Positions 1-44,876 of a stretch of DNA of 47,302 nucleotides are shown piece after piece. Below the pieces are notes generated by a model that was not told where the DNA came from, did not search any database, and was given only the letters and a program-made list of their open reading frames with translations. The stretch's first letter is position 1. The number at the start of each line of letters is the position of its first letter. The translations under genes were made by a program, and so were the position numbers. The stretch is from Candidatus Staskawiczbacteria bacterium (GTDB taxonomy: Bacteria; Patescibacteriota; Minisyncoccia; Minisyncoccales; Staskawiczbacteraceae), in assembly GCA_903831095.1 (NCBI GenBank), contig CAIKWD010000018.1, forward strand, positions 1 through 47,302, given 5' to 3'.

Positions 1-1988
1 AGGGAAACAATGTCTATCAAAACTACATTGCATATACCTGTAACAATCCAGGTACAGCAGGTTCTTCATGTTCAAACTCTACAACAGCTCAGCTTCAGAC
101 TACATGTACTGGAAGCCAGACATGTAACAATGGAAGCTGTAATAATCAGACAATAATTTGTTCAAACAATACTCAATGTGGAACTAATAATTTTACAGGT
201 TCACCATTCTGCCAAGGAAGCAATGTTTATCAGAACTATATAACATATACTTGTCACAATTCAGGAACAGCCAACTCATATTGTTCTGATTCCACAACTC
301 CGCAACTTCAAACTACATGTACTGGAAACCAGACATGTACAAATGGAAGCTGTACTACACAAATAATAGCTTGTGCTAATAATGCTGCCTGCGGAACTTC
401 TGGTCTAACTGGATCATTATTCTGCCAAGGTAATAGTATATATCAAAACTACATTGCATATACCTGTAACAATCCAGGTACAGCAAGCTCATCTTGCTCA
501 AGCTCTACAACAGCTCAACTTCAAACTACATGTACTGGAAGCCAGATATGCAGTAACGGAAGCTGTAGTACAAATTGCACACAAAACTCCCAACAGAGAT
601 GCGTGGGATCAAACTTGTACTGGTATGACTCATGCGGAGTTCAGGGAAACCTTATACAATACTGTGCTAATGGATGCTCTGGAAACGCTTGTATAATCAA
701 TAATTGTACACAAAACTCCCAACAGAGATGTGTTGGTTCTAGCTTGTACTGGTACGACTCATGCGGAGTCCAAGGAGGTTTTATACAATACTGCGCAAAT
801 GGATGTTTGGGCAACACCTGCAACAATAACTACAATAACTGCACTTACCACTCATCAGAAAGATGTATTGGAAACAGCTTGTACTGGTACGACTCATGCG
901 GAGTTCAGCAAGACTTGGCTCAATACTGCACAAATGGATGCGTTAACAACTACTGCACAAATAACTACAGTTACTATGGAAACTGCACCTATCATGCATA
1001 CAAACTTTGTACTGGAAACAACATATATTGGTACGACTCATGCGGAACTCAGCAAGATTTATACACAACTTGCGGTGGAGGCCAAACATGCCAATATGGA
1101 CAATGTACTTATCCACAAACTTATTCCAGTATTCAATATGTACAACCACAAAACACTTACATATCACATTACAGAACAGCCTGCAATGGAGGTTCTTTAA
1201 GCTGGTATGATTCACTTGGATCAGTCAGCGGAATATACCAAAATTGCACAGATAATAACAGTTGTACCTTAGATACCTGCGCAGGCGGAAAGTGCTCAAA
1301 TATTTCAAAATGTGATGGCACAACCTGCACTGTAGGATCTGCCGATTACAATACTTATTGTGCGGCAAATCATTGTGGCAACGGACTTTGCGAATCTACT
1401 TTGGGCGAAACAAACGCCAATTGCCCAGCTGACTGTAAAATAGTCATGCCAGTTGCAGGTTTGACAATCACATTTTTAACAAAAAACACCTCAACCTCAA
1501 ACCAATGGCAAAAACAAACCGAGATTGACCCAAACAGCCAAGCTTACTTTATGATTTCGGTTGTTAATAGTTCTACTTCACAAATTGACAACGTAAGTAT
1601 TTCAGCAAATATTCCTGTGGAAATTTCTTCAATAGGCAACTTACAGCTTAATGGCGTGCCAGTTTCTGGCGACATAATTTCTGGAATTAATATTGGATCT
1701 ATTTCTCCAGCGGGAATAAAAACAATAACATTTGAAGGAAAAACCCAAGCAATTTCTGCAACAGCTACAAAGCAAGCAACTGCCACAAGTAATGTTTTAG
1801 GAACAATACAGTCTGACTATGTAACAATAAATCTTTCTGCAAGTAAAACTACTGCTGCAGTTTCAGAATCTGTTACTTCAACTGGATTCTGGGGATTCCT
1901 GAAAAACTGGTATTTATGGATTTTAGGAGCAATTGTACTAGTATTTCTATTTGTTGTAGTATTCAAAAGATTTTCTTCAGACGTTTAA
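1..1988 (+). CDS. 5'-truncated cysteine-rich modular surface protein with C-terminal membrane anchor
   Basis: The frame starting at nt 3 is open from the window edge, so the GTG at 603 in the track is internal. It contains three ~71-aa Cys-rich modules (..QNYIxYTCxNxGTAxSxCSxSTTxQLQTTCTGxQxCxNGSC) and then 4-5 modules of 43-48 aa (C..RC.G..LYWYDSCG.Q..L.QYC.NGC). A beta-rich CARDB/DUF11-like stretch follows, then the hydrophobic helix WILGAIVLVFLFVVVF plus KRF. A terminator lies just downstream. Confidence 0.8.
   Translation, partial: GNNVYQNYIAYTCNNPGTAGSSCSNSTTAQLQTTCTGSQTCNNGSCNNQTIICSNNTQCGTNNFTGSPFCQGSNVYQNYITYTCHNSGTANSYCSDSTTPQLQTTCTGNQTCTNGSCTTQIIACANNAACGTSGLTGSLFCQGNSIYQNYIAYTCNNPGTASSSCSSSTTAQLQTTCTGSQICSNGSCSTNCTQNSQQRCVGSNLYWYDSCGVQGNLIQYCANGCSGNACIINNCTQNSQQRCVGSSLYWYDSCGVQGGFIQYCANGCLGNTCNNNYNNCTYHSSERCIGNSLYWYDSCGVQQDLAQYCTNGCVNNYCTNNYSYYGNCTYHAYKLCTGNNIYWYDSCGTQQDLYTTCGGGQTCQYGQCTYPQTYSSIQYVQPQNTYISHYRTACNGGSLSWYDSLGSVSGIYQNCTDNNSCTLDTCAGGKCSNISKCDGTTCTVGSADYNTYCAANHCGNGLCESTLGETNANCPADCKIVMPVAGLTITFLTKNTSTSNQWQKQTEIDPNSQAYFMISVVNSSTSQIDNVSISANIPVEISSIGNLQLNGVPVSGDIISGINIGSISPAGIKTITFEGKTQAISATATKQATATSNVLGTIQSDYVTINLSASKTTAAVSESVTSTGFWGFLKNWYLWILGAIVLVFLFVVVFKRFSSDV
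18..575 (+). repeat. Tandem coding repeat, period 213 bp (71 aa), about 2.6 copies
   Basis: caaaactacattgcatatacctgtaacaatccaggtacagca occurs at 18 and again at 444. A diverged copy (cagaactatataacatatacttgtcacaattcaggaacagcc) starts at 231. Confidence 0.85.
576..1230 (+). repeat. Tandem coding repeat, period 129-144 bp (YWYDSCG modules), 4-5 copies
   Basis: Units start at 576, 705, 840, 984 and about 1178. Each contains ..ttgtactggta[tc]gactcatgcgga... Confidence 0.8.
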
Positions 1989-2000
1989 TAAATGACAATA

Positions 2001-2030
2001 AAAACCACCCCCTCACGGGGTGGTTTTTTT
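2001..2030. terminator. Bidirectional intrinsic terminator
   Basis: aaaaCCACCCCctcacGGGGTGGttttttt lies between the convergent stops at 1988 and 2088. Confidence 0.8.
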
Positions 2031-2087
2031 GTACAAATAAAAAATCCCGAACGAAATGTTCAGGACGATTAAATATAAAAAATAAGA

Positions 2088-2273
2088 TTACAAAGTGTCG
2101 AAATCATGGCGACTTGTTTTTGATACAACCATAACAGTTTTTCCATCGCCTAAATTCACAAACCTAACTCTTTTAGTAACCATACTAATATTTTTTACCT
2201 TGGAAATATCTCCTTTGCTATTTTTACAATTTTTTGCCACACCTTTAGCTTTATTTCCTTTTGTTTTTTGCAT
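2088..2273 (-). CDS. Overlapping -1-frame ORF (61 aa); possible frameshifted continuation of 2195..2560
   Basis: It overlaps the upstream ORF by 79 nt. The frames meet around an A6 run (gcAAAAAAc). There is no independent RBS. Confidence 0.25.
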   Translation of the reverse strand: MQKTKGNKAKGVAKNCKNSKGDISKVKNISMVTKRVRFVNLGDGKTVMVVSKTSRHDFDTL

Positions 2274-2696: not shown

Positions 2697-3488
2697 ATGA
2701 TTGGAATTTTTGATTCGGGCGTTGGGGGGCTAACAGTTGTAAAAGAAATTTTTAAACAGCTTCCCGGCTACCAGATAACTTATTTTGGAGATACAGCCAG
2801 GCTTCCTTATGGCACAAAAGGGGCTGATTTTGTGAAAAAATATTCGTCAAAAATTACCAATTGGCTTCTTAATAAAAATGCAAAAATAATTGTCGTAGCA
2901 TGTAATACTTCTTCTGCCTGGGCATCAGACTCACTTAGGAAAAAATACAAAAATACTAAGATTTTTGACATGATAAGCTTTGCCGCACAAGATGTTGTGG
3001 CAACAACAAAAAATAAAAAAATTGGCATTATTGGAACACCTGGAACCATAAAAAGCAATGCTTGGAGCAAAACATTAAAGAAATTGGATCCATCCTTGAA
3101 AATTTTCTCCCAGCCTTGTCCGCTGTTTGTGCCAATGGTGGAAATGGGTTTTACAACTGGGACAGTAACAGAAAAGCTTGTGGACGAGTATTTAAAAAAA
3201 ATAAGGGCAAGCAAGGCAGATGTATTAGTTCTTGCGTGCACTCATTACCCACTTTTAAAAAAAGTTATACAAAAAACTGTTGGCCCAAAAGTCAAAATAA
3301 TAAATCCAGCTGAAAGCCTGGCAAGAGAAGTAAAAAAGTATCTGATGGAAAATGAGACCATAAATAGAAAAATGAAAAAGGGAAGTGCTAATAAATTCTT
3401 TTTTTCGGATGAACCGTATAACTTGGAGAAAATAAGCCACATGTGCTTTAATAAAAAAATAAAGCCAATAGTAAACGATCCTTTTTAA
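2697..3488 (+). CDS. murI: Glutamate racemase
   Basis: N-terminus MIGIFDSGVGGLTV, plus the conserved VVACNTSS and LACTHYP cysteine motifs. Confidence 0.93.
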   Translation: MIGIFDSGVGGLTVVKEIFKQLPGYQITYFGDTARLPYGTKGADFVKKYSSKITNWLLNKNAKIIVVACNTSSAWASDSLRKKYKNTKIFDMISFAAQDVVATTKNKKIGIIGTPGTIKSNAWSKTLKKLDPSLKIFSQPCPLFVPMVEMGFTTGTVTEKLVDEYLKKIRASKADVLVLACTHYPLLKKVIQKTVGPKVKIINPAESLAREVKKYLMENETINRKMKKGSANKFFFSDEPYNLEKISHMCFNKKIKPIVNDPF

Positions 3489-4816
3489 TGAAGAAAAATA
3501 TTTTCAAAAATAAAAAAGTTTTAGTAATGGGACTTGGATTGAATGGAGGAGGAGTCGGAGTTGCAAAATTTTTCTGCAAACAAGGTGCGGATGTTTTGGT
3601 TACTGACTTAAAATCAGAAGAAGTTTTGAAAGATTCAATTTCAAAATTGAGAGGCAAAAAAATAAAATATACCTTGGGTAAGCATAAGGAAAAAGATTTT
3701 CTTTGGGCCGACCTAATTATAAAAAATCCAGATGTCCCAAGCTCGTCTCCATATCTTGAAATTGCCAAAAAAAATAATATAGAAGTTGAGACAGATATAA
3801 GCTTATTTTTAAAAATGTCCAAGGCTTTTTCAATTGGCATAACTGGAACAAAGGGAAAATCTACAACTTCGTCTTTGATATATCACATTTTAAGGAAAAA
3901 ATTTAAAAAAACATTTTTAGCTGGAAATATTGGCATTTCACCGCTTGAGCTATTACCAAAAATAAAAAAGGGGGACAAGATTGTGCTTGAACTTTCCAGT
4001 TTTGGACTGGAAGATTTAAAACAAAGTCCAAATATATCTGTGATTACAAACATAATGACTGATCACCTTAACCGCTATGGCACAATGGCTGAATATATTG
4101 AAACAAAAAAAATAATCTTCAAATACCAAAATAAAAATGACGCGCTTGTTTTAAATGAAGATGACTTTATTGTGCGACAATTCGCCAAGGAGGCAAAATC
4201 AAAGGTCTATTTTTATTCGGGTAATAATGTCAAAGCTAATGGTTTTAAATTAATGGGGAAACAAAATTTATCAAATCTTTCTGCTGCTATAACAGTTGCA
4301 AAATTATTGAAAGTTCCAGAAAAAAATATACTCTCTGCAATTAAAACATTTAAAGGAGTGCACAGCAGGCAGGAATTTGTAAGGGAAGTATCAGGCGTAA
4401 AATATTTTAATGATACAACTGCAACTATTCCCGAAGCCGTGGTTTCAGCAATGGATTCGCTTTCGGAAAAATTTACCAGCGCAAAAATATTGTTAATTTG
4501 CGGAGGAGTTTACAAAGGAGTTGATTACAATAAAATGGTTGAAAAAATTATTGAAAAAAATGTTGGAATAATTATGCTCCCTGGAAATGCATCTGATAAA
4601 ATAATAGAAAAACTTGGCCAATATGCAGAAATTTACAATGTGACATCTATGCAAGAAGCAGTAGAAAAAGCCAGCCATTTGGCAAAAAGAGGAGATGTGG
4701 TTATACTTTCACCAGCAGCTTCAAGCTTTAACCTCTTTAAAAATGAATTTGACAGAGGAAATCAATTTGTCCAAGCAGTAAAAAAATTGGGGAAAACAAA
4801 TGAAAGGACATTTTAA
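3488..4816 (+). CDS. murD: UDP-N-acetylmuramoylalanine--D-glutamate ligase
   Basis: N-terminal Rossmann motif VMGLGLNGGG, Mur ligase P-loop GITGTKGKSTT, and a C-terminal SPAASSFN.FKNEF.RG motif. The ATG overlaps the murI stop. Confidence 0.93.
   Translation: MKKNIFKNKKVLVMGLGLNGGGVGVAKFFCKQGADVLVTDLKSEEVLKDSISKLRGKKIKYTLGKHKEKDFLWADLIIKNPDVPSSSPYLEIAKKNNIEVETDISLFLKMSKAFSIGITGTKGKSTTSSLIYHILRKKFKKTFLAGNIGISPLELLPKIKKGDKIVLELSSFGLEDLKQSPNISVITNIMTDHLNRYGTMAEYIETKKIIFKYQNKNDALVLNEDDFIVRQFAKEAKSKVYFYSGNNVKANGFKLMGKQNLSNLSAAITVAKLLKVPEKNILSAIKTFKGVHSRQEFVREVSGVKYFNDTTATIPEAVVSAMDSLSEKFTSAKILLICGGVYKGVDYNKMVEKIIEKNVGIIMLPGNASDKIIEKLGQYAEIYNVTSMQEAVEKASHLAKRGDVVILSPAASSFNLFKNEFDRGNQFVQAVKKLGKTNERTF
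4169..4181 (+). repeat. Motif copy ATTGTGCGACAAT (perfect 13-mer) inside murD
   Basis: ctttATTGTGCGACAATtc; encodes IVRQ. Confidence 0.9.
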
Positions 4817-8556: not shown

Positions 8557-8567
8557 TATTGCTTGTT

Positions 8568-9110
8568 ATGGAAATAAAAATCTTCAGCGACAAGAAAATA
8601 ATAATCAGAAAAATAATAAAATCAGACTTAAAGAATATAAAAAAATTCCAAGTCTTTATCAATTCCTTTCTCATTGAAGATGCAAAGCTTTCAATTAATA
8701 AAAAAGTCACTCCAAATGCGCAAAAGGAATTTTTAAAGAAAACATTGGATGGCATGAGAAATAAATCGAAGGTTTATCTTGTAGTAGAATCTGATAATAA
8801 AATTATTGGCGCAAGCGATATTGAATTATTAGGACAAAGGAGAAATCACATTGGTTCATTTGGAATTGCCATTAAGGCAGGTTATAGGGGAGTAGGTCTG
8901 GGTAAATATTTAATGTCAGAAATTATTAAACTGGCAAAAAAAGAATTAAATCCTACTCCAAAAATTATCCAACTAGAAGTCTACGCTAATAATAAACCAG
9001 CTGTAAGTCTTTATAAAAAAATGGGATTTAAAATTTGCGCAAAGCTTCCAAAACAGGTTCAATGGAAGGGGAAGTTAATCCCAATATTTATAATGATGCA
9101 CGAGATTTAA
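8568..9110 (+). CDS. GNAT-family N-acetyltransferase
   Basis: Acetyl-CoA motif IAIKAGYRGVGLGKYLM and LYKKMGF. The ATG at 8568 is preferred over the TTG at 8559 given in the track. Confidence 0.8.
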   Translation: MEIKIFSDKKIIIRKIIKSDLKNIKKFQVFINSFLIEDAKLSINKKVTPNAQKEFLKKTLDGMRNKSKVYLVVESDNKIIGASDIELLGQRRNHIGSFGIAIKAGYRGVGLGKYLMSEIIKLAKKELNPTPKIIQLEVYANNKPAVSLYKKMGFKICAKLPKQVQWKGKLIPIFIMMHEI

Positions 9111-9124
9111 AAAATATATAATTT

Positions 9125-9137
9125 ATTGTGCGACAAA
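9125..9137 (+). repeat. Motif copy ATTGTGCGACAAa, intergenic
   Basis: atttATTGTGCGACAAatat. It shares the 16-mer ATTGTGCGACAAATAT with the copy at 43181-43196 (RC). Confidence 0.9.
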
Positions 9138-9161: not shown

Positions 9162-9530
9162 ATGCAACAAGAAAAAGGTTTCATAAAATATATTATTATA
9201 ATAGCTGTCATACTGGTTTTCGTTTTTCTGAGCCAACAGGCATATTCACGATTTTTTGGCAAAACCCTCATTTCCGATGCAACTGACCAAATTAAGGCAT
9301 ATGTGGCAAAAGGATCAAATTGGGTGGCCTCAAAAGTATATCCAAAAATAGCCGAGGAAGTTCAGAATAGGGGAGAAGTGATAAAAAATGAAGTTACAAA
9401 AGAAAAAGAAAAAGTTTCAGAAAATATTTTAAAAAAAGTTGAAAATTATTTTGCGGGAATTTCAAACAGTATTCTGCATCCCGGTGAAAATAATTGCACA
9501 GTTCAGACAACTCAGACACCAATTAAATAA
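9162..9530 (+). CDS. Small N-terminally membrane-anchored hypothetical protein
   Basis: ATG at 9162 (MQQEKGFIKYIIIIAVILVFVFLS...). The upstream TTG start in the track would read through the conserved DNA motif. Confidence 0.55.
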   Translation: MQQEKGFIKYIIIIAVILVFVFLSQQAYSRFFGKTLISDATDQIKAYVAKGSNWVASKVYPKIAEEVQNRGEVIKNEVTKEKEKVSENILKKVENYFAGISNSILHPGENNCTVQTTQTPIK

Positions 9531-9556
9531 AAAGACGATCTAAACATCGTCTTTTT
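9529..9556. repeat. 28-bp inverted-repeat site, copy 1 (AAAAAGACGAT-CTAAAC-ATCGTCTTTTT); terminator-like and dif-like
   Basis: Perfect 11-bp arms with a 6-bp spacer. It is 27/28 identical to 10668..10695 in the same orientation. Confidence 0.85.
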
Positions 9557-9579: not shown

Positions 9580-9608
9580 TTGACCTGACTCAAGGGGAGC
9601 CTTATTAT
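9580..9608 (+). promoter_or_regulatory. Sigma70-type promoter of the recombinase gene
   Basis: TTGACC (9580-9585), 17 nt, TATTAT (9603-9608). The 5' UTR contains the hairpin ATGTCGC-N14-GCGACGT (9621-9648). Confidence 0.65.
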
Positions 9609-9622
9609 AGATATAGAGGCTA

Positions 9623-9633
9623 TGTCGCAAAAT
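9623..9633 (-). repeat. Near-copy TGTCGCAaAAT in the recombinase 5' UTR
   Basis: One mismatch to the 11-mer core. It forms the 5' arm of the UTR hairpin. Confidence 0.5.
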
Positions 9634-9683
9634 GTAGGTAAAGCGACGTACTATATAAGGGCTTCTTAAGGATAATCAAAAAC

Positions 9684-10655
9684 ATGCAAAATTCAAACAA
9701 ACCAATAAAAGAACATATTCAAGACTTTTTAGATTTCTGTGAAGTTGAAAAAGGTTTAAGAAAAAATACTCAGGAGAATTATAAAAACTATTTGGAGAAA
9801 TTTTTTCGCTGGCTCGACGAGACTAAAAATAGCTCTTTGCTCCCCCATCAGCTGACCTCTGACCATATTTGGACCTATAGATTATACCTTTCTAGAACTC
9901 CTAGCCCAGCTACAGGCAAATTGCTGTCCAAAGGCACCCAGAACTATTATTTAATCGCTTTAAGGGCCTTTTTAGGCTATTTTGTGGCTAAAGACGTGCT
10001 TTCATTGCCCCCAGACAAAATATCGCTCTCAAAGCCAGATAGAGGCTCAAAAAGCATCAAATTCCTTACCTTAGATCAAGTCAGCAAGCTTTTAGCTTCC
10101 ATTGACCCAAAAGATGATGGAAGCATCAGGGATAGGGCCATTTTGGAGGTCTTTTTCTCAACCGGACTTCGTATTGCCGAACTCACTGCCCTAAATCTTG
10201 AACAGTTCAATAGCCTTAAAGACAAAAAAGACATGGAACTTGGAGTTATAGGAAAAGGTGGTAAACCACGCGTTGTTTATTTTTCTGAGCGCGCATTAAA
10301 CTTTGTCCGAACATATCTAGAAATTAGAAACAAGGTTGAACATGCCAATCAAAAAGCCTTGTTTATAAACTTCCGCGATAAGAAAGATGATACAGATGCC
10401 AGACTCACGCCAAGATCTATTGAACGCATGGTAAAAAAATACGCCCTACTTTCAGGTGTGCCAATTTTCACCACGCCACATACTCTTCGACACAGTTATG
10501 CAACAGATTTATTAAACCAAGGCGTTGACCTGCGAAGCATCCAGGAATTCCTTGGCCATAGCAATATTGCCACTACCCAAATCTACACACACGTCACAAA
10601 TAAAAGATTACGTGACATCCATCATCAATTCCACAGCGACCCCGACAAAAAATAA
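9684..10655 (+). CDS. Tyrosine site-specific recombinase, XerC/XerD-like
   Basis: SAM-like N-terminal domain. Catalytic signatures GLRIAELTAL (Arg), HTLRHSYAT (H-x-x-R) and GHSNIATTQIYTHV (His..Tyr). Confidence 0.9.
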   Translation: MQNSNKPIKEHIQDFLDFCEVEKGLRKNTQENYKNYLEKFFRWLDETKNSSLLPHQLTSDHIWTYRLYLSRTPSPATGKLLSKGTQNYYLIALRAFLGYFVAKDVLSLPPDKISLSKPDRGSKSIKFLTLDQVSKLLASIDPKDDGSIRDRAILEVFFSTGLRIAELTALNLEQFNSLKDKKDMELGVIGKGGKPRVVYFSERALNFVRTYLEIRNKVEHANQKALFINFRDKKDDTDARLTPRSIERMVKKYALLSGVPIFTTPHTLRHSYATDLLNQGVDLRSIQEFLGHSNIATTQIYTHVTNKRLRDIHHQFHSDPDKK

Positions 10656-10667
10656 TTAATATCAACA

Positions 10668-10695
10668 AAAAAGACGATATAAACATCGTCTTTTT
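10668..10695. repeat. 28-bp inverted-repeat site, copy 2 (AAAAAGACGAT-ATAAAC-ATCGTCTTTTT)
   Basis: Direct repeat of 9529..9556, offset by 1139 bp. The only difference is the first spacer base. Confidence 0.85.
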
Positions 10696-10718: not shown

Positions 10719-10733
10719 AAAAAAAGATACCAA

Positions 10734-12179: not shown

Positions 12180-12194
12180 AAAAATTAGCAGAGT

Positions 12195-35069: not shown

Positions 35070-37544
35070 TTACTTTGGAGAAACTGGTGGAGGCACGACA
35101 GCTTGAGGAACTTCGGCAAACGACCTCTGTGCAATCTCTTGTTCTACAATTTCCTTTGGATGCGAATATTTTAATTTGGATATTTTTTTGATTGCGTCAA
35201 TAATTTCTGGCCTGCCTTTTGGAGGTGGAAGGGTTTGCATTTTAAATGGCGTAGAAATTTTATTATTGATCATCATTTTAATAATAAGTGTAAAGTTGTC
35301 CAAATTAACCAAATCAAACCTTGTAAACCCTGGCTCAAACTGTTTTTCCAAATTCTCAGCATCTTCAGCTCCAATTCTAAAAGCTCCAATTGTACCAACG
35401 TTTCCCAAAACAGCATCTCTTATTTCCTGCTTTAACTGGGGCATGTACTGGTGGGCCATAATCAAGTTTAACTTGTATTTCCTAGCTTCAGACAAAATTG
35501 TGGCAATGGAATCTGTTGTAAAGTTTTGGAATTCGTCAATGTAAAGATAAAAGTCAACTCTTTGTTCTTCAGAAATTATTGCCCGTCTCATGGCAGCCAT
35601 TTGAATTTTTGAGACCAAGATCAAGCCAAGTAACGAACTGTTTACCTCTCCAGTCAAACCTTTTGACAAATTTGCCAAGAATATTTTTTTACTATTCATT
35701 ATTTCAGCCAAATCAAAACCAGAATGCGACTGTCCAATAATATTTCTCATCATTTCGTTTTCTATAAACCTGCCCAATTTTGAAACAACATATCCTAGCA
35801 TGTCAGACCTGGTAGAACCTGTTGTCTGTGCCCATTCCTTAATCCAAAAGGACCTGACAATTGGATCTGTAACTTTTGCCAGCTTTTGTTGTAAAAATGT
35901 AGGGTCAGTAAACATTTTTGGAATTTCAACCAATGTCCCAGGATTGTTTTTATCAGCCATTAAAGCTAGCATGGCGTTTCTCATGTAATGTTCAAACATT
36001 GGGCCAATAATTTCTGGTGGAAAAAGCTTCATAAATATAGCTATCATTTCCTGTACGGCAAAATCTTTCTGCTCTGGCGAATCATATTCTAACATATTCA
36101 ACCCGCAAGGTCTTTCTGTGTCAAACGGCTCAAACATTACAACGTCGTCAATTCTTTCTTTTGGAATCATAGCCAAAACATGCTCAACTGTTTCTCCATG
36201 CGGATCAATAACAGCTACTCCTTCGCCATTGGCAATATCTTGAGCAATCATACCTTCCATAAAACCTGATTTACCAACACCGGTTTGTCCAATAATATAA
36301 AAGTGTCTTCTTCTATCTTCGCGCTTGGCAAAATAAATTTTCCTTTCTTCATTTCTAAAAGAAACTTTTCCAATTTGTATTTCACCATTTTCAGGCAAGT
36401 CTGTTGGTGGAGCTGCAACAACTGATTTTGCAGCCTTAATATATGGAGTTTCAATATATTGCGTTGGAAAATGATAAATACTGGCCAATTCTTCCAAATT
36501 CAAAACATTTGCCTGCTTTTTATTGAAATTTCTGAAGCTGTAGTCATAAACAAGTTTTTGCAATTCTCTCTTATATACCTCTTTTATTTCCAAACTGTTT
36601 ATTGCAGACATTGAAAACTGGCTAAATGCAGAAGTCAAATGGTTTAAAATTTCTTCTGCTCTTGCTCCAGTTTGTGCAGAAGCTACAACTCGTATATTAG
36701 CTTCAAAAGGTTGTTTTTGAATTTTATTTTGAATTGCGTCATAACCTTTTTGGTCAAAACTCTGCTCTTTATCTTTAAGTCCCAATTCTTCATTTTTTTT
36801 GTTTTGATCTTTGCCAAAAAAAACTTTAGACATTTCATCAAAAATTTCAAATATTGGACTTTGATAAGCTTGCACAACCGCAAATCTTACGGGCTTTCCC
36901 TCTCTAATTTTTTTCAATGCTTTTTCGCCATTTTTCCTTAAATTTATTTTCGACAAAGGCCTGATTATAACCTGAACTGCTCCTCCTTCATCAGAATTTA
37001 TTTTACTCAAAGTATTTGTAACCAAAGCCAATGGATCTGTTTCCAATGTTTGGTATGTACTTATTGGAAAAAGCGAACTTTCCGAAAGCTGTAAATATGC
37101 TCCTGCTGTTGCACCCTGAGGCTCAAAAATTGTGTAATCTTGCGGGACTTTGTCTACAACAGCATTTGGATAAACCCCTTGTACATATTTTTCAAATACA
37201 GATTCCAAATATTTTGGAACTGCCACATAAAAAGAAATATCAGAATTTCCTATTTGAGAAGCAATTTCAAATGCACAACATGGCTGAGCTTGAAATGGAC
37301 CTGGTTTTTTCAAATATAAAAAATTGGCAAAAACCTGTTCCATTTGACCAATCATTGTTTTTTCTTCCTTTTGTTGCTCTCCCTCTTTTTTTGTAGTATG
37401 CTTTGGCATCATAACCAAAAATAAAACCATTTCCAGTCCACCAAAGACGGAATTCTTTTCGTTAGTTTCAGCATTTAGAACCATAATAAACGCCAAAACA
37501 ATAAGAAGAAAAACTAAAATTAATCCTGGAATAATTATTGCCAT
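35070..37544 (-). CDS. Membrane-anchored P-loop ATPase, VirD4/TraD (type IV coupling protein)-like
   Basis: N-terminal TM helix, Walker A GQTGVGKSG, Walker B FYLYIDEFQNF, and ARKYKLNLIMAHQYMPQL, which is typical of TraG/TraD-family C-terminal domains. 824 aa. Confidence 0.6.
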   Translation of the reverse strand: MAIIIPGLILVFLLIVLAFIMVLNAETNEKNSVFGGLEMVLFLVMMPKHTTKKEGEQQKEEKTMIGQMEQVFANFLYLKKPGPFQAQPCCAFEIASQIGNSDISFYVAVPKYLESVFEKYVQGVYPNAVVDKVPQDYTIFEPQGATAGAYLQLSESSLFPISTYQTLETDPLALVTNTLSKINSDEGGAVQVIIRPLSKINLRKNGEKALKKIREGKPVRFAVVQAYQSPIFEIFDEMSKVFFGKDQNKKNEELGLKDKEQSFDQKGYDAIQNKIQKQPFEANIRVVASAQTGARAEEILNHLTSAFSQFSMSAINSLEIKEVYKRELQKLVYDYSFRNFNKKQANVLNLEELASIYHFPTQYIETPYIKAAKSVVAAPPTDLPENGEIQIGKVSFRNEERKIYFAKREDRRRHFYIIGQTGVGKSGFMEGMIAQDIANGEGVAVIDPHGETVEHVLAMIPKERIDDVVMFEPFDTERPCGLNMLEYDSPEQKDFAVQEMIAIFMKLFPPEIIGPMFEHYMRNAMLALMADKNNPGTLVEIPKMFTDPTFLQQKLAKVTDPIVRSFWIKEWAQTTGSTRSDMLGYVVSKLGRFIENEMMRNIIGQSHSGFDLAEIMNSKKIFLANLSKGLTGEVNSSLLGLILVSKIQMAAMRRAIISEEQRVDFYLYIDEFQNFTTDSIATILSEARKYKLNLIMAHQYMPQLKQEIRDAVLGNVGTIGAFRIGAEDAENLEKQFEPGFTRFDLVNLDNFTLIIKMMINNKISTPFKMQTLPPPKGRPEIIDAIKKISKLKYSHPKEIVEQEIAQRSFAEVPQAVVPPPVSPK

Positions 37545-38664: not shown

Positions 38665-39909
38665 CTATTCATACCGCAAAGCTTCAATTGGATCTAATTT
38701 AGCTGCAGCTCTTGCTGGCAAAACTCCAAATGATATGCCAATAGCAGCAGAAACTCCAACTCCAATTGCAATTGCGTACAACGGCACAGTAAACACCCAA
38801 ACCAAACCACTGGCATTTGCAACAACAGCAACAAACCAACTTAATAAAGCGCCTAAAACAATTCCAATAATTCCTCCCAGAACTGTTACTAAAATAGATT
38901 CTATTAAAAACTCGCTCAAAATATCTAAACTTCGCGCTCCAAGCGCTTTCTTAAGTCCAATTTCAGCGGTTCTTTCAGTCACGACAACATACATTATATT
39001 CATAATGCCTACTCCCCCAACAACCAAAGATATGGAAGCTATGGCAATAAGCAAAATAGTTATGCCGTTGAAAATTGTGTTGTATATATCAAGTACCTGA
39101 GCCTGAGTCACAACTTGAAAGTCATCTTTATTGGGATCTGTTATATTGTGATTATGCCTCAAAGTCATCCTAATATTTTCTGCTGTTGCGTCTCCCAAAT
39201 TTACATTTTTTAACTGCACAACTGCCACGGTAATATAATCAATGCCAAGCATTTTCTTTTGTGCGGTGCCCAGGGGCATATATATACTGTCGTCAGCTGA
39301 TCCACCACCAACAGCTCCTTGAGAATTATAAACTCCAATAACTTGAAAATTTAGATTTCCCACTCGCATTAATTTTCCCAAAGGATCATCCTGCAAAAAT
39401 AAATCTGTTGCCACATTTTTTCCTAAAATAACAACCTGGGCAGCTCCTGTATCCTCAGCTGCTGTATAAAACCTCCCTTCTTTAAGCGTATGCTGGTCTA
39501 TGACAAACCTTTCAGAAGAAGCCCCATAATAAATAATACTTTTCTGATTGTTTCTGTAGCTTGAGACAGCCATGCCTGTTACCATTCCATAATTATTTTT
39601 TACGTTGTTTAATTTTTTGATATCATTCAAATCACGCGGCTTTAATGTTGTTATTCCAACAGCTATACCAGGAGTCAAAGATCCCGACGCACGGCTTTTT
39701 GTAGTTGGAGGAACTTTTGTTCTTACAAATAAAGTATCTGACCCAAGCGACTGAATTTGATCATTTATTAAACTGCGAAATCCCGCTCCAGCTGACAAAA
39801 CCATAATCACAGTGGAAATACCAATAACAATACCCAAAGTTGTAAGCAAAGTACGCACAGGATTTGCGCGCATTGCTTTTATCGATTGTTTTAAGGCTTT
39901 ATTATTCAT
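38665..39909 (-). CDS. ABC transporter permease, MacB/FtsX family
   Basis: N-terminal TM helix, a large extracytoplasmic MacB_PCD-like domain, then a C-terminal FtsX 3-TM bundle. It ends in DPIEALRYE. Confidence 0.85.
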   Translation of the reverse strand: MNNKALKQSIKAMRANPVRTLLTTLGIVIGISTVIMVLSAGAGFRSLINDQIQSLGSDTLFVRTKVPPTTKSRASGSLTPGIAVGITTLKPRDLNDIKKLNNVKNNYGMVTGMAVSSYRNNQKSIIYYGASSERFVIDQHTLKEGRFYTAAEDTGAAQVVILGKNVATDLFLQDDPLGKLMRVGNLNFQVIGVYNSQGAVGGGSADDSIYMPLGTAQKKMLGIDYITVAVVQLKNVNLGDATAENIRMTLRHNHNITDPNKDDFQVVTQAQVLDIYNTIFNGITILLIAIASISLVVGGVGIMNIMYVVVTERTAEIGLKKALGARSLDILSEFLIESILVTVLGGIIGIVLGALLSWFVAVVANASGLVWVFTVPLYAIAIGVGVSAAIGISFGVLPARAAAKLDPIEALRYE

Positions 39910-41173
39910 AGCGCAAAGCTTCTATTGGATTTAATTTTGACGCCTTTAAAGCTGGATACAATCCAAAGATTACTCCAGTTAATATAGAAACTCCAACTGC
40001 CAAGAAAATTGAGGAAAAAGAAACAACAAAAGCCCAGTCATATCCCAAATAGTGCATCAACAAAGTTATTAAGTAAGAAATAATTATGCCAATTATTATG
40101 CCAAAAACTCCACCAAGAAAAGTCAAAGTTCCAGCCTCAAGTAAAAACTGACGCATTATTGCCACGTTAGTTGCTCCAACTGCTTTTCTCAACCCTATTT
40201 CTCTTGTTCTTTCAGCCACAGTTGCTAACATAATATTCAAAATTCCAATTCCTCCGACAACCAAAGAAATTGCCGCCATAGCTGTAAGAAAAAGGCGTAA
40301 AGCATTTGTAATTGTGCTTAAAATACTTATTGCATCAGCTACATTGTAAATAGTAAAATCAACATCCGCATCTTTCTGAATATGATGATTTTGCTTTAAA
40401 ACCCTTGTTATGTCGGCAATGGTTTGTGAGGCGTTGTCTGCTGAATCAAGTTTTATATTTATTGACTGCAAATAATGTATACCCAACAACTGCTCTTGGC
40501 CAATAGTTAAAGGAATAAAAATTTGGTCGTCATTATCCTGGAAAAAAGAACTGCCTCGGGAAGTTATAACTCCAATTACGCGGAGAGGAATTCCTCCGGC
40601 TTCTTTTTGGGAGGAACTTTTTACTTTGATTACTTGCCCAATTGGATCAACGCCAGTGCTATCAAATAATTCACTAGCAACCGTTGAGCCTAAAACAGCT
40701 ACATTAGCATTCCCTTGCTGTTCTTGTTGGTTGAAAAAATTTCCTTGGCGCATTGTAAAATCAACAACATTAGAATAACTACTTTCAACACCCATAAAAT
40801 TTGTATCAATATTTTTATTCTGCCAAGTAGCAGAGGCAGAACCTCTTACCATAGAACAAACAGCCAAAGCATGTGAAACCTGAGATTTACTTCTTAAAGA
40901 ATCTGCATCTGAATTTACCAAAGTTGTAACCGTGATTCCAAAAACTTCTGATGGTGGTCCTTTCTCATTACTTTTCCCCGGCTGAACTGACAAAATATTT
41001 GAACCAAGTTTTGTCACCTGCCCTAAAATTAAGCTTTGTGCTCCAGCTCCCAAGGCAATAATAATTATCACTCCGGCAACTCCAATTACAATTCCCAGTA
41101 TAGTCAAAAATGACCTGCCTTTTCTGGCAAGCAATGTTCTAAAAACTAATTTTATTGTTCCCAAAAAATCCAT
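39902..41173 (-). CDS. ABC transporter permease, MacB/FtsX family (second copy)
   Basis: Same architecture, ending in NPIEALRYE. It overlaps its neighbours by 8 nt and 1 nt. Confidence 0.85.
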   Translation of the reverse strand: MDFLGTIKLVFRTLLARKGRSFLTILGIVIGVAGVIIIIALGAGAQSLILGQVTKLGSNILSVQPGKSNEKGPPSEVFGITVTTLVNSDADSLRSKSQVSHALAVCSMVRGSASATWQNKNIDTNFMGVESSYSNVVDFTMRQGNFFNQQEQQGNANVAVLGSTVASELFDSTGVDPIGQVIKVKSSSQKEAGGIPLRVIGVITSRGSSFFQDNDDQIFIPLTIGQEQLLGIHYLQSINIKLDSADNASQTIADITRVLKQNHHIQKDADVDFTIYNVADAISILSTITNALRLFLTAMAAISLVVGGIGILNIMLATVAERTREIGLRKAVGATNVAIMRQFLLEAGTLTFLGGVFGIIIGIIISYLITLLMHYLGYDWAFVVSFSSIFLAVGVSILTGVIFGLYPALKASKLNPIEALRYE

Positions 41174-41889
41174 TATTTTATCAAATCTTTATCTGCCGTT
41201 GCAATAGTTCTTTTTGCCACTTTCTCATCGGAAATTATGCTTCCGTCTTTTATACGCACAATTCTTTTGGCATGGTTTGCAGTGTCAGTTTCGTGAGTTA
41301 CCAAAATAATAGTGTGCCCTTGATCATTCAATTTCTGTAAAATAAACATTACCGTATTCCCAGATTTTGAATCCAAATTTCCAGTTGGTTCATCAGCAAA
41401 AATTACTGCAGGATTGTTTACTAAAGCTCTGGCAATTGCAACGCGCTGTTTTTCTCCTCCGGAAATTTGGTTAGTAAAATAATCCAATCGATGCGAAAGC
41501 CCAACCGAGTCCAATGCTTTTTCTGCAAGCTTGTCGTAATCTTTTTTCTTGCTATAAATTAAAGGAAGCCTTACATTGTCTAATACACTAGTTCTGGCAA
41601 GCAAATTAAAAGATTGAAAAACAAATCCAACACGCTCATTTCTAAGTTTTGCCAAATAATCGTCATTAAAGTCTTTTGTATCTTTTCCTTCAAACTTATA
41701 TATCCCGCCTGTTGAACGGTCCAAAAAACTGAGAATATGCATCAAAGTTGATTTACCAGAACCTGAGGGGCCCATAATAGCAACAAATTCCCCTTCCTCA
41801 ACCTTAAAACTAACATCACGCAAAACCTCAGTTATTACGTCATCATTTACATAATCTTTTTGTAAATTTTTAACCTCAATTAAAGCCAT
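41173..41889 (-). CDS. ABC transporter ATP-binding protein (MacB/LolD-type)
   Basis: Walker [10 protein letters not shown], signature SGGEKQR, Walker B VIFADEPT. Confidence 0.9.
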
Positions 41890-43415
41890 TATGGTTTTAT
41901 ATAAATTACTATTTCTTGCCCATCACTGATTCCGGAAGTTATCTCTACCAACCCACCATCTGCCTGTAACCCTGTTTGAACTTTAACTTCTTTATATGTT
42001 TTATTTTTGCTATCTGTAATAATTCTAACGTATTGCTGATTATTTTTGTTAATAATTGCCGTAGATGGAATAGCTAAAGTATTGTCTTTTTTAGCAACTA
42101 AAATTGTCATGTTAGCAGTCATTCCCGGCTTTATATTTGGAGTGTTATCAATACTGCCTTTTACCAAATAATCAACTACTCCAGAAATTATTGTAGCTGC
42201 AGGATTGATTATCAAAACTTTCCCAGAAAAATGCTGGTCTGGTCCAAGAGCATCAAAAGTGTAATCAATTGCTTGGCCAATTTGCAAGGAAGCTACATTT
42301 GCCTCGCTTACATAAGCTTCTGAATGTAAATTTCCAATGTCCTGCAAAATCATAACTTCCTTTGATGGAGATGCCAACTCGCCAACTTTAATTTCAACTC
42401 GCGTAATTGTGCCATCTGCTGGAGCAACAACAACTGAATTATTTACAATTGCCTGAGCTGAATCAACTTGTCCTTGAGCTGAAATTATCTGCGCTTTTGC
42501 CAAATCAATATCTTCCTGTCTTGGTTTTGCCTGTTTGGCTGACAAATTATGCTGAGCTGTTTGAAGCGAAGCTTTATAAGAAGCAATATTATTCTGCAAA
42601 GTGTTAATATTACTTAAAGCTGTGCTGACAGCTGTTTTTTGTGCGTCTAACAAAGCCTTATCTGTTGCAGAAACATTATTATAATAAATTCCCAAATCAA
42701 ACTGATTTCGTATAATTTGCAACGAGCTAAAAGTACTGTTTAAATAATCTGACAAATTTGATATTACCAAATCAACCTTGTCGTTTCCGGTGGCCTGGCT
42801 TATGCTGGTCGAAGCACTTGCCATGTAATTGTTTATGTTTATTTTGTTGTCTTGAACCAATATACTTTGCGGATCTACAGCAGTAAAATATCTGTCTTTC
42901 ATTATCACAACTGTATTGTAGGCATTGTAAATTGCCGTGTAAGATCCGTTTAAGGTTATTGAAGCGCTGTTGTAAAAATTGTTTAAGCTTACACTGGCAG
43001 AAGTTACAGCGTCTTGGAGCATTTGAATGTCGTTTGGAGTTGCGCCATTAATCAATTTGTCATAACTTGCCTGAGCTTGTGCCAAAGACCCTTGTGCAGA
43101 AACAAGATTTGCCAGCGCGGAAGATTGATCAAGCGAAGCTAAAACTTTTCCCTTTGAAACTTTGTCCCCTTCTTTGGCAGATATTTGTCGCACAATACCG
43201 CTGGCTTGAAAACTCAAACTCAAGTCAGTTGCACTGACAACTTGTCCTGTAGACAAAACAGTTTCCTGCAAATTTTGCTTTGTTACAAGGCCAGTTTGTA
43301 TTGAACCAGTGTTTCCCTTACCCTTAAAAATGAAAAATCCAATAACAACAAGAATTAAAATTATTACTATTATCCAAATATTTCTTTTTTTAGCTAAAAA
43401 TTTAGGAAACTTCAT
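41889..43415 (-). CDS. HlyD/MacA-family membrane fusion (periplasmic adaptor) protein
   Basis: N-terminal TM helix, lipoyl-like halves (ISAKEGDKVSKGKVLASL / DGTITRVEIKVGE) separated by a long coiled-coil region, and a beta-barrel C-terminus. Confidence 0.8.
   Translation of the reverse strand: MKFPKFLAKKRNIWIIVIILILVVIGFFIFKGKGNTGSIQTGLVTKQNLQETVLSTGQVVSATDLSLSFQASGIVRQISAKEGDKVSKGKVLASLDQSSALANLVSAQGSLAQAQASYDKLINGATPNDIQMLQDAVTSASVSLNNFYNSASITLNGSYTAIYNAYNTVVIMKDRYFTAVDPQSILVQDNKININNYMASASTSISQATGNDKVDLVISNLSDYLNSTFSSLQIIRNQFDLGIYYNNVSATDKALLDAQKTAVSTALSNINTLQNNIASYKASLQTAQHNLSAKQAKPRQEDIDLAKAQIISAQGQVDSAQAIVNNSVVVAPADGTITRVEIKVGELASPSKEVMILQDIGNLHSEAYVSEANVASLQIGQAIDYTFDALGPDQHFSGKVLIINPAATIISGVVDYLVKGSIDNTPNIKPGMTANMTILVAKKDNTLAIPSTAIINKNNQQYVRIITDSKNKTYKEVKVQTGLQADGGLVEITSGISDGQEIVIYIKP
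43184..43196 (-). repeat. Motif copy (plus strand tTTGTCGCACAAT) inside the MFP gene
   Basis: The RC ATTGTGCGACAAa encodes IVRQ in the minus-strand gene. Confidence 0.9.
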
Positions 43416-43429
43416 TTTGTTATTTTTAT

Positions 43430-44128
43430 TTATTTTTTTAAAATACTAAGTCCTTTAGCTTTCTCCAGCCATCTACCAAATTGACAATCTTGGCTGTGCG
43501 GAGGCGGAGATCCCTGCTTTAAAACATTTACCGCATCTTTAAATATTTCATAAATATCGGCCGGGTTTGTTTCTATTTCTACTATTTCTTTTCTAAATGG
43601 AATTCTATCAACAAACCCTCTACTTTTGTCCACTAAATAAAAGGCTAAATAACCTTTATGCGTAGTTTGGTATCCGTTTTTCTCCATTAGAAATGTATAA
43701 GTGTCCAATTGAAGCTGAAACCTGTCATAAACTTTTTCTGTTGTGCTTCCAGTTGACTTGTAATCAAGCGGAGCAATTTTTCCATCTTTAAATTCAAGCA
43801 CATCGTCTACCGCGCCAAACAAAGTTGCCCCAAGTTCCTTGTCAAAATATCTTATACCAGCCAAATTATTCCGCCATTGATTAAGTAATTTTTGATTTGC
43901 AAACAAATGCGCTTTTATATTATTTTCTTCAAGCAAAGGAGGAGACAATTTTTTAGCCCGGTAAGTATCAAATTCTTCTTTCAATAATTCATCAACTGCC
44001 AAATTCAATGCATATGGATAAGCAGGCGGACGTTTTATTCCCAAATTCTTATCTAGCCAAAAGCAATGTGCACATTCCAAAAACAAGTTCAGCGAATTGG
44101 GTGAAAGTTGTATTACTTTGTCTGCCAT
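43430..44128 (-). CDS. PD-(D/E)XK (Cas4/RecB-like) nuclease-family protein
   Basis: GAVDDVLEFKDGKIAPLDYKS (D..E.K core). There are N-terminal CAHC and C-terminal Cys residues. Confidence 0.55.
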   Translation of the reverse strand: MADKVIQLSPNSLNLFLECAHCFWLDKNLGIKRPPAYPYALNLAVDELLKEEFDTYRAKKLSPPLLEENNIKAHLFANQKLLNQWRNNLAGIRYFDKELGATLFGAVDDVLEFKDGKIAPLDYKSTGSTTEKVYDRFQLQLDTYTFLMEKNGYQTTHKGYLAFYLVDKSRGFVDRIPFRKEIVEIETNPADIYEIFKDAVNVLKQGSPPPHSQDCQFGRWLEKAKGLSILKK

Positions 44129-44135
44129 ATTAAAT

Positions 44136-44876
44136 TTATTTTATCATAACCAATCTCCACTTACCATATTGATCTTTTTTGAATTCAAAACTATTATAAT
44201 TATATTTTTTGACTAGTTTTTCTATATTTTTCTTTTGTATATAATCAAACTCCATAAAAATTATCCCTCCGGGGTTTAAATGATTTTTTGCCTCTTTAAA
44301 AAATTTATTAATATAATAAAGCCCATCTCTTCCTCCAAACAAAGCTTCCTTTGGCTCAAATTTTAAAACTGACTTTTGAATTTTATTTTTTCTTGTTGTG
44401 GGAATATACGGCGGATTGGCAAAGATAAAATCATACTTACTTTTTATATTTAAAAAAATATCTGACTGGATTACCCTTCCTCTAACTTTGTTTATTTTCA
44501 AATTTAGCTTAATTTGTTCTACAGCTTTTTTATCTTTGTCAGCAAAGTCGCACAATAAACTTGGAATGTTTTTTAACAACGAAATTCCAATGCACCCAGA
44601 CCCGGAAAAAATATCCAAGGCAGAAAATCCGTATTTTTTGCGGTCGGAAAAAACACGGCTAACTTCTTTTATAGCCTCACCTACCCAGTATTCTGTTTCT
44701 GGTCTTGGAATCAACGGCTTTTTAGACAAGTCTATTTTACATCCCAAAAACTCGGTAAATCCTATTACATAATCTACAGGCTCCCCTGCCTTGAGCCGCT
44801 CAACATCTCTATCAAAATTTTTATCTGGTTTATTATTGTATTTTTCTTTTAACAACCAGCTAATCTCTTTTTTCAT
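44136..44876 (-). CDS. prmC: Peptide chain release factor N5-glutamine methyltransferase
   Basis: SAM motif LDIFSGSGCIG and the catalytic FANPPYI. Confidence 0.85.
   Translation of the reverse strand: MKKEISWLLKEKYNNKPDKNFDRDVERLKAGEPVDYVIGFTEFLGCKIDLSKKPLIPRPETEYWVGEAIKEVSRVFSDRKKYGFSALDIFSGSGCIGISLLKNIPSLLCDFADKDKKAVEQIKLNLKINKVRGRVIQSDIFLNIKSKYDFIFANPPYIPTTRKNKIQKSVLKFEPKEALFGGRDGLYYINKFFKEAKNHLNPGGIIFMEFDYIQKKNIEKLVKKYNYNSFEFKKDQYGKWRLVMIK
44544..44556 (-). repeat. Motif copy (plus strand aaaGTCGCACAAT) inside prmC
   Basis: The RC reads gtttATTGTGCGACttt (10-mer core). It is read in a different frame (LLCDF). Confidence 0.75.

Follow-up and report, generated by a model that had tools for sequence, protein, structure and literature searches.

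Candidatus Staskawiczbacteria belong to the Candidate Phyla Radiation (CPR, or Patescibacteria), whose members have tiny genomes and cannot be grown alone, and to our knowledge almost nothing is known of how CPR chromosomes are organized and segregated. We analysed a stretch of 47,302 nucleotides from one such genome (assembly GCA_903831095.1, contig CAIKWD010000018.1, positions 1 to 47,302; hereafter the window), in which the gene of a Xer-type tyrosine recombinase (xer) adjoins a two-armed, dif-like site, and in which short copies of a motif matching one arm of that site are scattered on either side. A first-pass annotation, made from the letters of the window, had picked out this motif and offered three candidate roles: a sequence orienting the translocase FtsK, a Chi-like recombination hotspot or a DNA-uptake sequence. 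Our analyses show that an oriented family of one-armed dif sites is real and stronger than first noted, and that it is different in kind from these three proposals.

The product of xer gives NCBIfam scores of 3.8e-68 for XerD and 1.2e-65 for XerC, each below its equivalog cut-off; it fits these profiles far better than that of the integron integrases, and its top relatives among solved structures are E. coli XerD (1a0p) and archaeal XerA. More than 100 homologues named Candidatus Staskawiczbacteria have identities of 80–93%. For comparison, 80 xer loci were taken from GTDB genomes by way of the Xer protein, and each copy of the 10-mer ATTGTGCGAC was listed with its context. The lineages and loci compared are labelled with L-numbers (such as L123, L246 and L324), L323 being the 785-kb contig k141_522868 of ERZ27249449. 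Gene order is conserved as gltX, a small gene, dif, xer, a LAGLIDADG gene encoding 165 aa and uppS. In an alignment of 10 lineages a predicted TTGACA-17-TATTAT promoter for xer is conserved (TTGAC and TAT) with dif directly after it, the dif-like site lying between this promoter and the xer start codon.

Along the + strand of the window GC skew stays positive between about 3 and 10 kb and is negative between 10 and 47 kb, while genes run rightward up to 9.5 kb and, from 10.7 kb, nearly all leftward. Given a G-rich leading strand, this joint switch in skew and gene direction is the signature of a replication terminus at xer and dif; the change of skew from positive to negative at xer recurs in 14 of the 28 CPR loci that have 10 kb on either side. 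Judged by this setting, the two-armed site most likely marks the terminus. Signatures of dnaA, parB and gyrB, sought as an origin-proximal sample, were absent from the fetched loci of the Staskawiczbacteria lineage; genes resembling gyrB or parE stand near xer in Microgenomates loci only (EGDSAGG signature, six loci). The unit of promoter, dif and xer is flanked in the window by two near-identical terminator-like hairpins of 24 bp (AAAGACGAT-N6-ATCGTCTTT; 9531–9554 and 10670–10693, 1139 bp apart), a pair that is missing in five relatives checked.

Table 1. Features of the window. Positions count from its first letter; the one-armed sites are candidate half-sites of dif.
Feature	Position	Strand	Details
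dif-like site, 11-6-11	9622–9649	+	ATGTCGCAAAA TGTAGG TAAAGCGACGT
Predicted xer promoter	9580–9608	+	TTGACC-17-TATTAT, consensus match only; directly upstream of dif-like site
xer	9684–10655	+	XerD/XerC/XerA-type tyrosine recombinase, 323 aa
One-armed site	4166–4179	+	TTTATTGTGCGACA; lies in murD (F I V R Q codons)
One-armed site	9122–9135	+	Between GNAT gene and small gene
One-armed site	10708–10721	-	Directly downstream of xer stop
One-armed site	12169–12182	-	3' end of glycosylase cassette
One-armed site	12587–12600	-	5' flank CCA; LAGLIDADG gene promoter
One-armed site	32400–32412	-	TTTATTGTGCGAC then T; inside second Mur ligase gene
Motif copy	43186–43199	-	5' flank GGT; HlyD-type membrane-fusion gene, codons I V R Q
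One-armed site	44547–44559	-	Methyltransferase gene, frame L C D
One-mismatch relative	1357–1367	+	ATTGTGCGGCA; orientation as expected
One-mismatch relative	25484–25494	-	ATTATGCGACA; class II tRNA synthetase gene
murD	3488–4816		Hosts site 4166–4179
GNAT acetyltransferase gene	8559–9110	+	Variable gene between gltX and 9122 site
Small gene	9163–9530		Between 9122 site and dif/xer unit
thrC (threonine synthase)	10766–12082	-	Variable block between sites 10708 and 12169
Pyrimidine-dimer DNA glycosylase gene	12195–12539	-	Pfam Pyr_excise 4.8e-25; gene plus 3' site
LAGLIDADG gene	12650–13147	+	Free-standing protein, 165 aa; Pfam LAGLIDADG_1 7.5e-15
Second Mur ligase gene	31693–33006		Hosts site 32400
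HlyD-type membrane-fusion protein gene	41889–43415		Hosts copy 43186
PrmC-type small methyltransferase gene	44136–44876		Hosts site 44547

Two-armed sites were searched for with the pattern GTCG[CT]-N14-G[CT]GAC, which matches once in the window and, in many CPR lineages, once per locus just upstream of xer. The site reads ATGTCGCACAA TGTAGG TTAAGCGACGC in L133, ACGTCGCACAA TGTAGG TTAAGCGACGC in L135 and ATGTCGCACAA TGTATC TTATGCGACGT in L200, a locus of Microgenomates type, and several lineages have full sites of the form TGTCGCACAAT-GTAGGT/GTATCT-...GCGAC immediately upstream of xer. Across the 10 aligned lineages the core of the window's site is invariant and its flanks diverge. The dif site of E. 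coli is GGTGCGCATAA TGTATA TTATGTTAAAT, and the likeness extends to arm and centre (...CGCACAA TGTAGG in the window, ...CGCATAA TGTATA in E. coli). Similar in the same two respects is the dif of Thermococcus, which PMC11840125 gives as TTTTGATATAA TGTACC TTATATGACAA. Literature on dif or Xer sites in CPR bacteria was sought and nothing was found. An attempt to find lineage-specific words through raw 9-mer counts per locus was swamped by AT-rich words, and the degenerate arm pattern was used instead.

The scattered motif had been described as six exact copies of the 11-mer ATTGTGCGACA, and all six were found (4169+, 9125+, 10708-, 12169-, 12587- and 43186-) against 0.03 expected from dinucleotide shuffles. 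With up to one mismatch there are 11 copies against 0.57 expected, the additions being 1357+, 9623-, 25484-, 32399- and 44546-. The one-mismatch and one-deletion relatives previously placed at 1357, 9623, near 24073 and near 25483 exist, that near 24073 being the one-deletion form ATTG-GCGACA at 24075-, and 32399- had been missed. Also as described earlier, the copies at 9125 and 43186 share the 16-mer ATTGTGCGACAAATAT, and five of seven copies read TTTATTGTGCGAC, with a TTT prefix. Over-representation had been noted against equal base frequencies, and ATTGTGCGAC (eight copies, 0.08 expected) is the most over-represented 10-mer of the window under an order-3 model. The variant ATTATGCGACA is the standard form in the sister lineage, and the site at 44547 has orthologues in the metagenome loci L263 and L286. 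Eight bases from the 12587 site, at 12560–12582 on the - strand, lies a second near-palindrome, ATTGTGATACAAT, which is related to the motif with an altered centre.

These copies can be matched to the site beside xer. Reverse-complementing the left arm of dif together with the first base of its centre gives the scattered motif, whose own reverse complement is TGTCGCACAAT, and the relative at 9623 is itself the left arm of the dif-like site. Some of the 10-mer copies belong to a longer structure, (C)GTCGY-AAAAG-N4-ATTGTGCGAC(R). Among scattered copies, a profile built from 56 that were not ascertained holds information solely at positions -3 to +10, that is TTTATTGTGCGACA, and shows neither a second, degenerate arm nor an attC-like inverted repeat. 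Since the profile holds one arm without trace of another, the scattered copies read as 14-bp one-armed dif sites, TTTATTGTGCGACA; on the other strand this reads TGTCGCACAA plus TAAA, an Xer arm that runs into the beginning of an A-rich substitute for the centre. In ten loci of Microgenomates type (L186, L187, L188, L190, L191, L195 and L198–L201) a lone half-site lies 10–270 nt upstream of the xer start codon and a full dif-like site 0.2–3.7 kb further upstream, an arrangement that suggests autoregulation of xer or a two-site module.

The motif had been held to be directional, with an orientation that flips at the Xer/dif module, and both statements are upheld on a wider sample. All copies left of 9.2 kb in the window are on the + strand and all right of 9.6 kb on the - strand, a split that is 10 of 10 without the dif arm (p ~0.002, given a fixed boundary and a perfect split) and that coincides with the switch from positive to negative skew at 9–10 kb. 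The conserved arm faces dif in every copy, and in each chromosome arm the strand that carries the copies is the leading one, which is G-rich and sense. In 22 pooled xer loci of this lineage and its sister, 29 of 29 left-hand copies are on the xer strand and 41 of 43 right-hand copies on the opposite strand, while the lone half-site between dif and xer in Microgenomates-type loci has the - orientation that the rule predicts. Every relative with the conserved copy between xer and the LAGLIDADG gene has it on the - strand; as both genes are on the + strand, it tracks its side of dif and not its neighbours. A second exception to the rule of gene direction is a + gene in L125 flanked by - copies.

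The density of copies falls away from xer. Eight xer loci hold 43 copies in 166.7 kb, and five loci around the alanyl-tRNA synthetase (AlaRS) gene or a ribosomal operon hold two in 99.5 kb, both at one in-gene site of AlaRS; density is about ten times higher in the ~20 kb around xer, where it reaches about one copy per 5 kb, than in ribosomal-operon loci. The distance of these far loci from xer, 130 kb, is taken from a single genome, the 785-kb Staskawiczbacteria contig, where xer lies at 549.4 kb and the AlaRS gene at 419.9 kb. This contig has seven copies in 21 kb at xer and none in 22 kb at AlaRS, even with the relaxed pattern ATT[GAT]T[GA]CGAC. One far and one near locus of the comparison come from the same assembly. 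Three exact copies in the window still stand 23–35 kb from dif. On this limited sample the motif is steeply enriched around the terminus, with a thin tail, and not genome-wide, and the uniform spread expected of an FtsK-orienting, Chi or uptake word is not borne out.

A metagenome scan with the exact 16-mer returned at least 120 stretches; such a scan favours perfect flanks, so that its xer-proximal share is not a density. Among the matches listed, about 53 are chance-like (GC up to 0.64; in-gene matches 23 in the same sense and 18 antisense) and about 67 are credible. Of the latter 27 are xer-proximal and 27 fall in a second cluster, where at least 17 chain to genes of the window or to the cell-wall (dcw) genes just to its left. 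An exact 14-mer scan of viral contigs gave at least 120 single matches, which is the level of chance.

Many copies lie inside genes. In the window the hosts are murD, the second Mur ligase gene, the membrane-fusion gene and the methyltransferase gene, the frame being ATT GTG CGA C in the first three and A TTG TGC GAC in the last, and across all in-gene copies each of the three reading frames occurs. The effect on the protein is visible in gltX, where L125 and L127 encode LLLCDK (CTT TTA TTG TGC GAC AAA) at a place where six relatives have L-x-F/Y/E-S-E/K/R-K/N/D, mostly L-F-S-E-K. In murD the codons ATT GTG CGA CAR are kept in the window, L126 and L127 while neighbouring synonymous sites differ, and in L124 the site is absent and other residues are in place. 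The earlier suggestion of a function at the level of DNA is sustained by these cases, since in-gene copies change the encoded protein, and such copies appear to be kept by selection on the DNA itself. In-gene sites are also gained and lost between lineages, a turnover that would be expected of a signal whose number or density outweighs exact position. Copies in frame give the same peptide, (F)IVRQ, in unrelated proteins (murD at 4166–4183 and the membrane-fusion gene at 43186–43196 in the window, L235 at 7937, L204 at 688 and L314 at 5740; the hosts beyond the first two are AlaRS, a multi-pass membrane protein, flippase-like by eye, and a 1328-aa protein), and the other common frame gives LCD.

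Near xer the copies bracket blocks of variable genes. To its left, most relatives (L123, L124, L125, L146) have a copy in the interval between gltX and the small gene, and most pooled loci have one at -529 to -792 from xer; the GNAT gene found there in the window is missing in L122, L123, L126, L127 and L146, and L124 and L125 have other genes in its place. To its right, most relatives have a copy 3–77 nt after the xer stop, and frequently two in tandem, spaced by about 25 bp. Some relatives have a gap of 57–150 bp between xer and the LAGLIDADG gene, with one or two sites in it; in others the gap is filled by 1.1–5.6 kb of unrelated genes, and sites mark where the blocks begin and end. The thrC gene that occupies it in the window is absent from this position in every relative examined. 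Its predicted promoter (TTGACA-16-TAATAT, 12167–12140) abuts the 12169 site, so that this block has a predicted promoter of its own (compare promoter-poor cassettes), and the 10708 site lies beyond the thrC terminator hairpin (10739–10758) and before the shared hairpin (10668–10695). A second gene of threonine-synthase type, dependent on pyridoxal phosphate, lies at 27832–29127 and is 87% identical to a gene of L287 that has different neighbours.

Movement of a block is best seen in the glycosylase unit, which occurs in three different contexts. Positions 12168–12545 of the window correspond to 13981–14358 of L324 at 80% DNA identity; the homology begins exactly at the 12169 site and ends just past the start codon, and both the neighbours and the wider array differ. 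In L246, the closest relative (Xer 93% identical), the glycosylase is 90% identical; it has changed both strand and side of dif, and here too a site pointing to dif, cttGTTGTGCGACAGATTAA, comes after it. Such a placement is the product expected from site-specific insertion into mirror-oriented sites. A simple inversion across dif was considered for the change of side and ruled out, as the orientation of xer relative to gltX is unchanged. Other blocks in relatives encode an RNase T-type exonuclease, a phosphorylase, an amine-oxidase-type enzyme and an ATP-binding cassette (ABC) exporter. In L323 a defence-type island stands to the right of xer (11000–20200), with genes for an Mrr restriction domain, a Zn-ribbon protein, RNase H, an N6/N4 methyltransferase, UvrD, an OLD-TOPRIM ATPase and Fic; sites divide it into a block of Mrr and RNase H, a methyltransferase block, a Gabija-like pair of UvrD helicase and OLD-TOPRIM protein, and Fic. 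The layout is that of cassettes, in which variable genes are each followed by a site, in one orientation, beside a tyrosine recombinase gene.

On balance, and with moderate confidence, we regard the motif as probably a one-armed dif site at which a single Xer monomer docks, serving both as a cassette junction and as an oriented mark of the terminus. The Xer encoded beside dif would be the most likely binder of each site. In the arrays flanking xer, the sites may be junctions at which blocks made of one or more genes plus a 3' site enter, leave and move, and the orientation of the site would fix that of the gene, leaving cassette genes co-directional with replication. Copies in core genes would probably act as oriented, Xer-bound marks met by machines arriving from the origin side, such as the SMC complex (structural maintenance of chromosomes), FtsK or the replisome. 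All three move from origin to terminus, and polarity alone therefore cannot name the target. What the sequences show is the match to the dif arm, the one-armed build, the polarity, the enrichment at the terminus, selection at the level of DNA, the promoter overlaps, and blocks that are bracketed and relocated; that Xer binds the sites and recombines them, and that SMC, FtsK or forks are affected, we infer from these patterns. Two promoters would also be touched, since the 12587 site overlaps the -35 box of the LAGLIDADG gene and dif follows the xer promoter, so that occupancy of the arm should repress both genes.

The closest parallel in kind may be the XerD-binding sites (XDS) of Bacillus subtilis, to which a role at cassette junctions, recalling integrons and Xer modules, would be added. 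These dif-like sites lie in its terminus region; on them XerD unloads Smc-ScpAB, and an XDS array blocks translocation of that complex, according to PMC11840125, PMC10945525 and PMC11894783, which cite Karaboja et al. 2021. Terminus marks of the kind proposed here would parallel that unloading. Shared features are dif-like sequences other than dif that are scattered in the terminus, presumably bound by Xer, and used outside dimer resolution. The present system differs in having apparently a single Xer, beside its dif, in a CPR host, and in sites that keep a strict polarity flipping at dif, often lie in genes and bracket blocks; the XDS side of this comparison comes through citing papers. The first-pass annotation had added that no role was described for the motif, which stands for the motif itself and fails for the wider class, dif-like XDS scattered in the B. 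subtilis terminus being reported in PMC11840125 and PMC10945525.

Several points weigh against this account. One-armed sites are poor substrates in known Xer reactions, and the scattered sites have neither an attC-like structure nor the full 28-bp structure of a pdif site. The arm of the window's dif, ATTTTGCGAC, differs at one position from the scattered consensus ATTGTGCGAC, and in the sister lineage the scattered sites have shifted to ATTATGCGAC with dif unchanged, which indicates that they do not simply track the dif arm. Bracketing is not always neat: on the left side, the window and L324 differ in where the site lies with respect to the GNAT gene. Many of the sites behind the pooled orientation counts are orthologous and therefore non-independent, the positions numbering no fewer than 20, and distance from dif is known for a single genome and a single far region. 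Of 53 in-gene copies 52 have the sense orientation and 93% of coding DNA in these contigs is on one strand, so that away from xer the directions of replication and transcription are inseparable; counter-oriented genes were considered as a separator and dropped, the 7% of coding DNA on the minority strand providing too few cases. Finally, the LAGLIDADG protein is a plausible alternative binder.

A bolder version of the recombination reading is that of a "Xer integron", in which the housekeeping Xer of Staskawiczbacteria and their sister lineage uses one-armed sites on both sides of dif to capture, shuffle and discard accessory and anti-phage modules, forcing captured genes to be co-directional, while the sites in core genes double as marks of the terminus domain. 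We put this forward tentatively, as possible and short of probable. Integrons (intI-attI-attC), pdif modules and integrative mobile elements exploiting Xer (IMEX) likewise have a tyrosine recombinase gene beside variable arrays of accessory genes, blocks ending in a short site copy, one site orientation per array and units found in different contexts. The attC site, however, is an imperfect inverted repeat (R''-L''...L'-R') forming a hairpin and the integron integrase has an extra domain, and the window's sites are one-armed without hairpin structure. The Xer-dependent pdif modules of Acinetobacter (PMC12907356, PMC11705084) and IMEX arrays at dif (PMC9765430, PMC6744903) are bounded by full 28-bp sites of XerC arm, centre and XerD arm, or integrated into dif itself, whereas the loci compared here have one full site each. 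Integration of blocks into dif on the IMEX model was rejected: it predicts that repeated integration would leave a conserved arm distal to dif, the opposite of the proximal arm observed. The arrays are also mirror images on the two sides of dif. Unlike integron and pdif arrays, these sites also occur in core genes tens of kb away. A direct link of xer to dif is known from the single-recombinase systems XerS/difSL and XerH/difH (PMC1914069, PMC3325230, PMC5241119), which resemble the window in that xer adjoins dif at the terminus; the Xer of the window is nearest to XerD and XerA, not to XerS or XerH. We know of no scattered one-armed copies described for XerS or XerH systems.

Another candidate reader of the sites is the LAGLIDADG protein, which might bind or cut them, regulate itself through the overlapping copy and create a hot spot for insertion; to this we give a small chance. 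Its gene stands on the far side of the xer array in L123–L128, L130 and L146 (60–78% identity in the xer-fetched GTDB set), thus in eight of the ten site-rich lineages, L122 and L129 being short contigs without a match. In the rest of that set there are only distant homologues, in L155 and L161, and the gene is present in many metagenome loci. The reverse complement of the 12587 site forms the -35 box of its predicted promoter (TTGTCG-17-TATAAT with TG, 12586–12614), an overlap found in at least seven lineages. By eye, the Asp of the catalytic motif is apparently retained and the site with its flanks is weakly pseudo-palindromic. A single-domain LAGLIDADG protein of 165 aa is nevertheless expected to work as a homodimer whose target is pseudo-palindromic and about 20 bp long, which does not match an informative site that is asymmetric and only 14 bp long. 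Lineages that lack this gene still have their two-armed site and lone half-sites made of the same arm, and cutting at dozens of chromosomal sites would be lethal. Conservation of the gene beside xer in the site-rich lineages is unusual for a gene of homing-endonuclease type, and suggests that the protein has been domesticated.

The main proposal of the first-pass annotation was an FtsK-orienting polar sequence (KOPS) or an architecture-imparting sequence (AIMS), read directly by FtsK or another translocase, with the likeness to the dif arm incidental. Like KOPS and the related SpoIIIE recognition sequences (SRS), the motif points strictly to dif from both replichores and lies on the G-rich leading strand, and its turnover within genes fits a signal based on density. 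We still think this explanation unlikely. KOPS are G-rich 8-mers unrelated to dif, read by the FtsK gamma domain over the whole chromosome, whereas the present site is a 14-bp, AT-rich dif arm that is about tenfold enriched around dif; the fall in density 130 kb away leaves the replichores uncovered. Lone half-sites stand beside xer in many lineages without scattered copies, and the bracketing of variable blocks has no place in such a scheme. No FtsK gene was found in the window.

Quite improbable, in our view, is a polar fork trap of the Tus-Ter or RTP-Ter kind (RTP, replication terminator protein), in which bound Xer or another protein would admit forks to the terminus and block their exit. 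Ter sites, like those bound by MatP (matS), are terminus-specific protein-binding sites, and Ter sites are polar and mirror-oriented as the present ones are; oppositely oriented copies flank the terminus and are concentrated there, and one falls within the promoter region of a conserved gene beside it, a placement like that of TerB at tus. Yet matS is a palindrome without polarity, Ter sites are few and unrelated to dif, and about one site per 5 kb near xer is far denser than in known traps. The window genes scanned, to which the search was confined, include no homologue of Tus, RTP or MatP, and bracketing of variable blocks is again left unexplained.

Very doubtful, too, is a signal tied to transcription, read in RNA as UUUAUUGUGCGACA or by RNA polymerase and hence confined to the sense strand. 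The near-complete sense orientation of in-gene copies agrees with it, as do intergenic copies away from xer, which follow a co-oriented gene; but the 93% strand bias of genes already predicts that pattern, the conserved copy that separates xer from the LAGLIDADG gene is antisense to the two of them, that after thrC is placed past the terminator hairpin, and the word is the arm of a DNA recombination site. An uptake sequence or Chi-like hotspot is scarcely credible: over-representation and occurrence in several frames would suit either, but uptake sequences are genome-wide at about one per kb without replichore polarity, against strict polarity and 0–1 copies per 22 kb away from the terminus here, the short words of Chi, recognised by RecBCD/AddAB, are likewise genome-wide, a spread that finds no support here even though their co-orientation does, and neither role explains the link to the dif arm or the cassette junctions. 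The roles proposed at first are thus not supported, on two counts, the motif being an arm of a dif-like site and its density uneven.

Other features of the window lie outside this argument. The only tRNA gene is a tRNA-Ala (GGC) at 20852–20923. An ATPase of HerA/TrwB/TraG type (824 aa, 35070–37544), resembling the coupling protein VirD4, adjoins a MacB-type ABC exporter with an HlyD-type adaptor (38665–43415). The word TCCGCATGAGTC occurs four times on the - strand between 627 and 1046, at spacings of 129–144 bp and against 0.04 expected, inside the open reading frame 603–1988; these copies most likely reflect tandem internal repeats of a 461-aa protein without a Pfam match. To the left of xer, murD is replaced or joined in L123, L125, L146 and L324 by a fused gene of 830–860 aa, which in L324 has the Pfam domains MurL_N, MurL_epimerase_C and Mur_ligase_M, and an in-gene site is common to L123 and L324.

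Should the preferred account of oriented, Xer-bound half-sites be correct, it would provide a predicted dif and terminus for a large part of the Parcubacteria. It would be a second independent case of Xer acting at dif-like sites outside dimer resolution, and the first with clearly oriented sites, making the effect of orientation on stopping or unloading by Xer testable. The arrays beside xer would represent a candidate platform for gene capture near the terminus, holding defence and metabolic genes and run by a housekeeping recombinase, and the 14-bp site would offer a practical marker for the terminus region and for accessory arrays in fragmented CPR metagenome bins.

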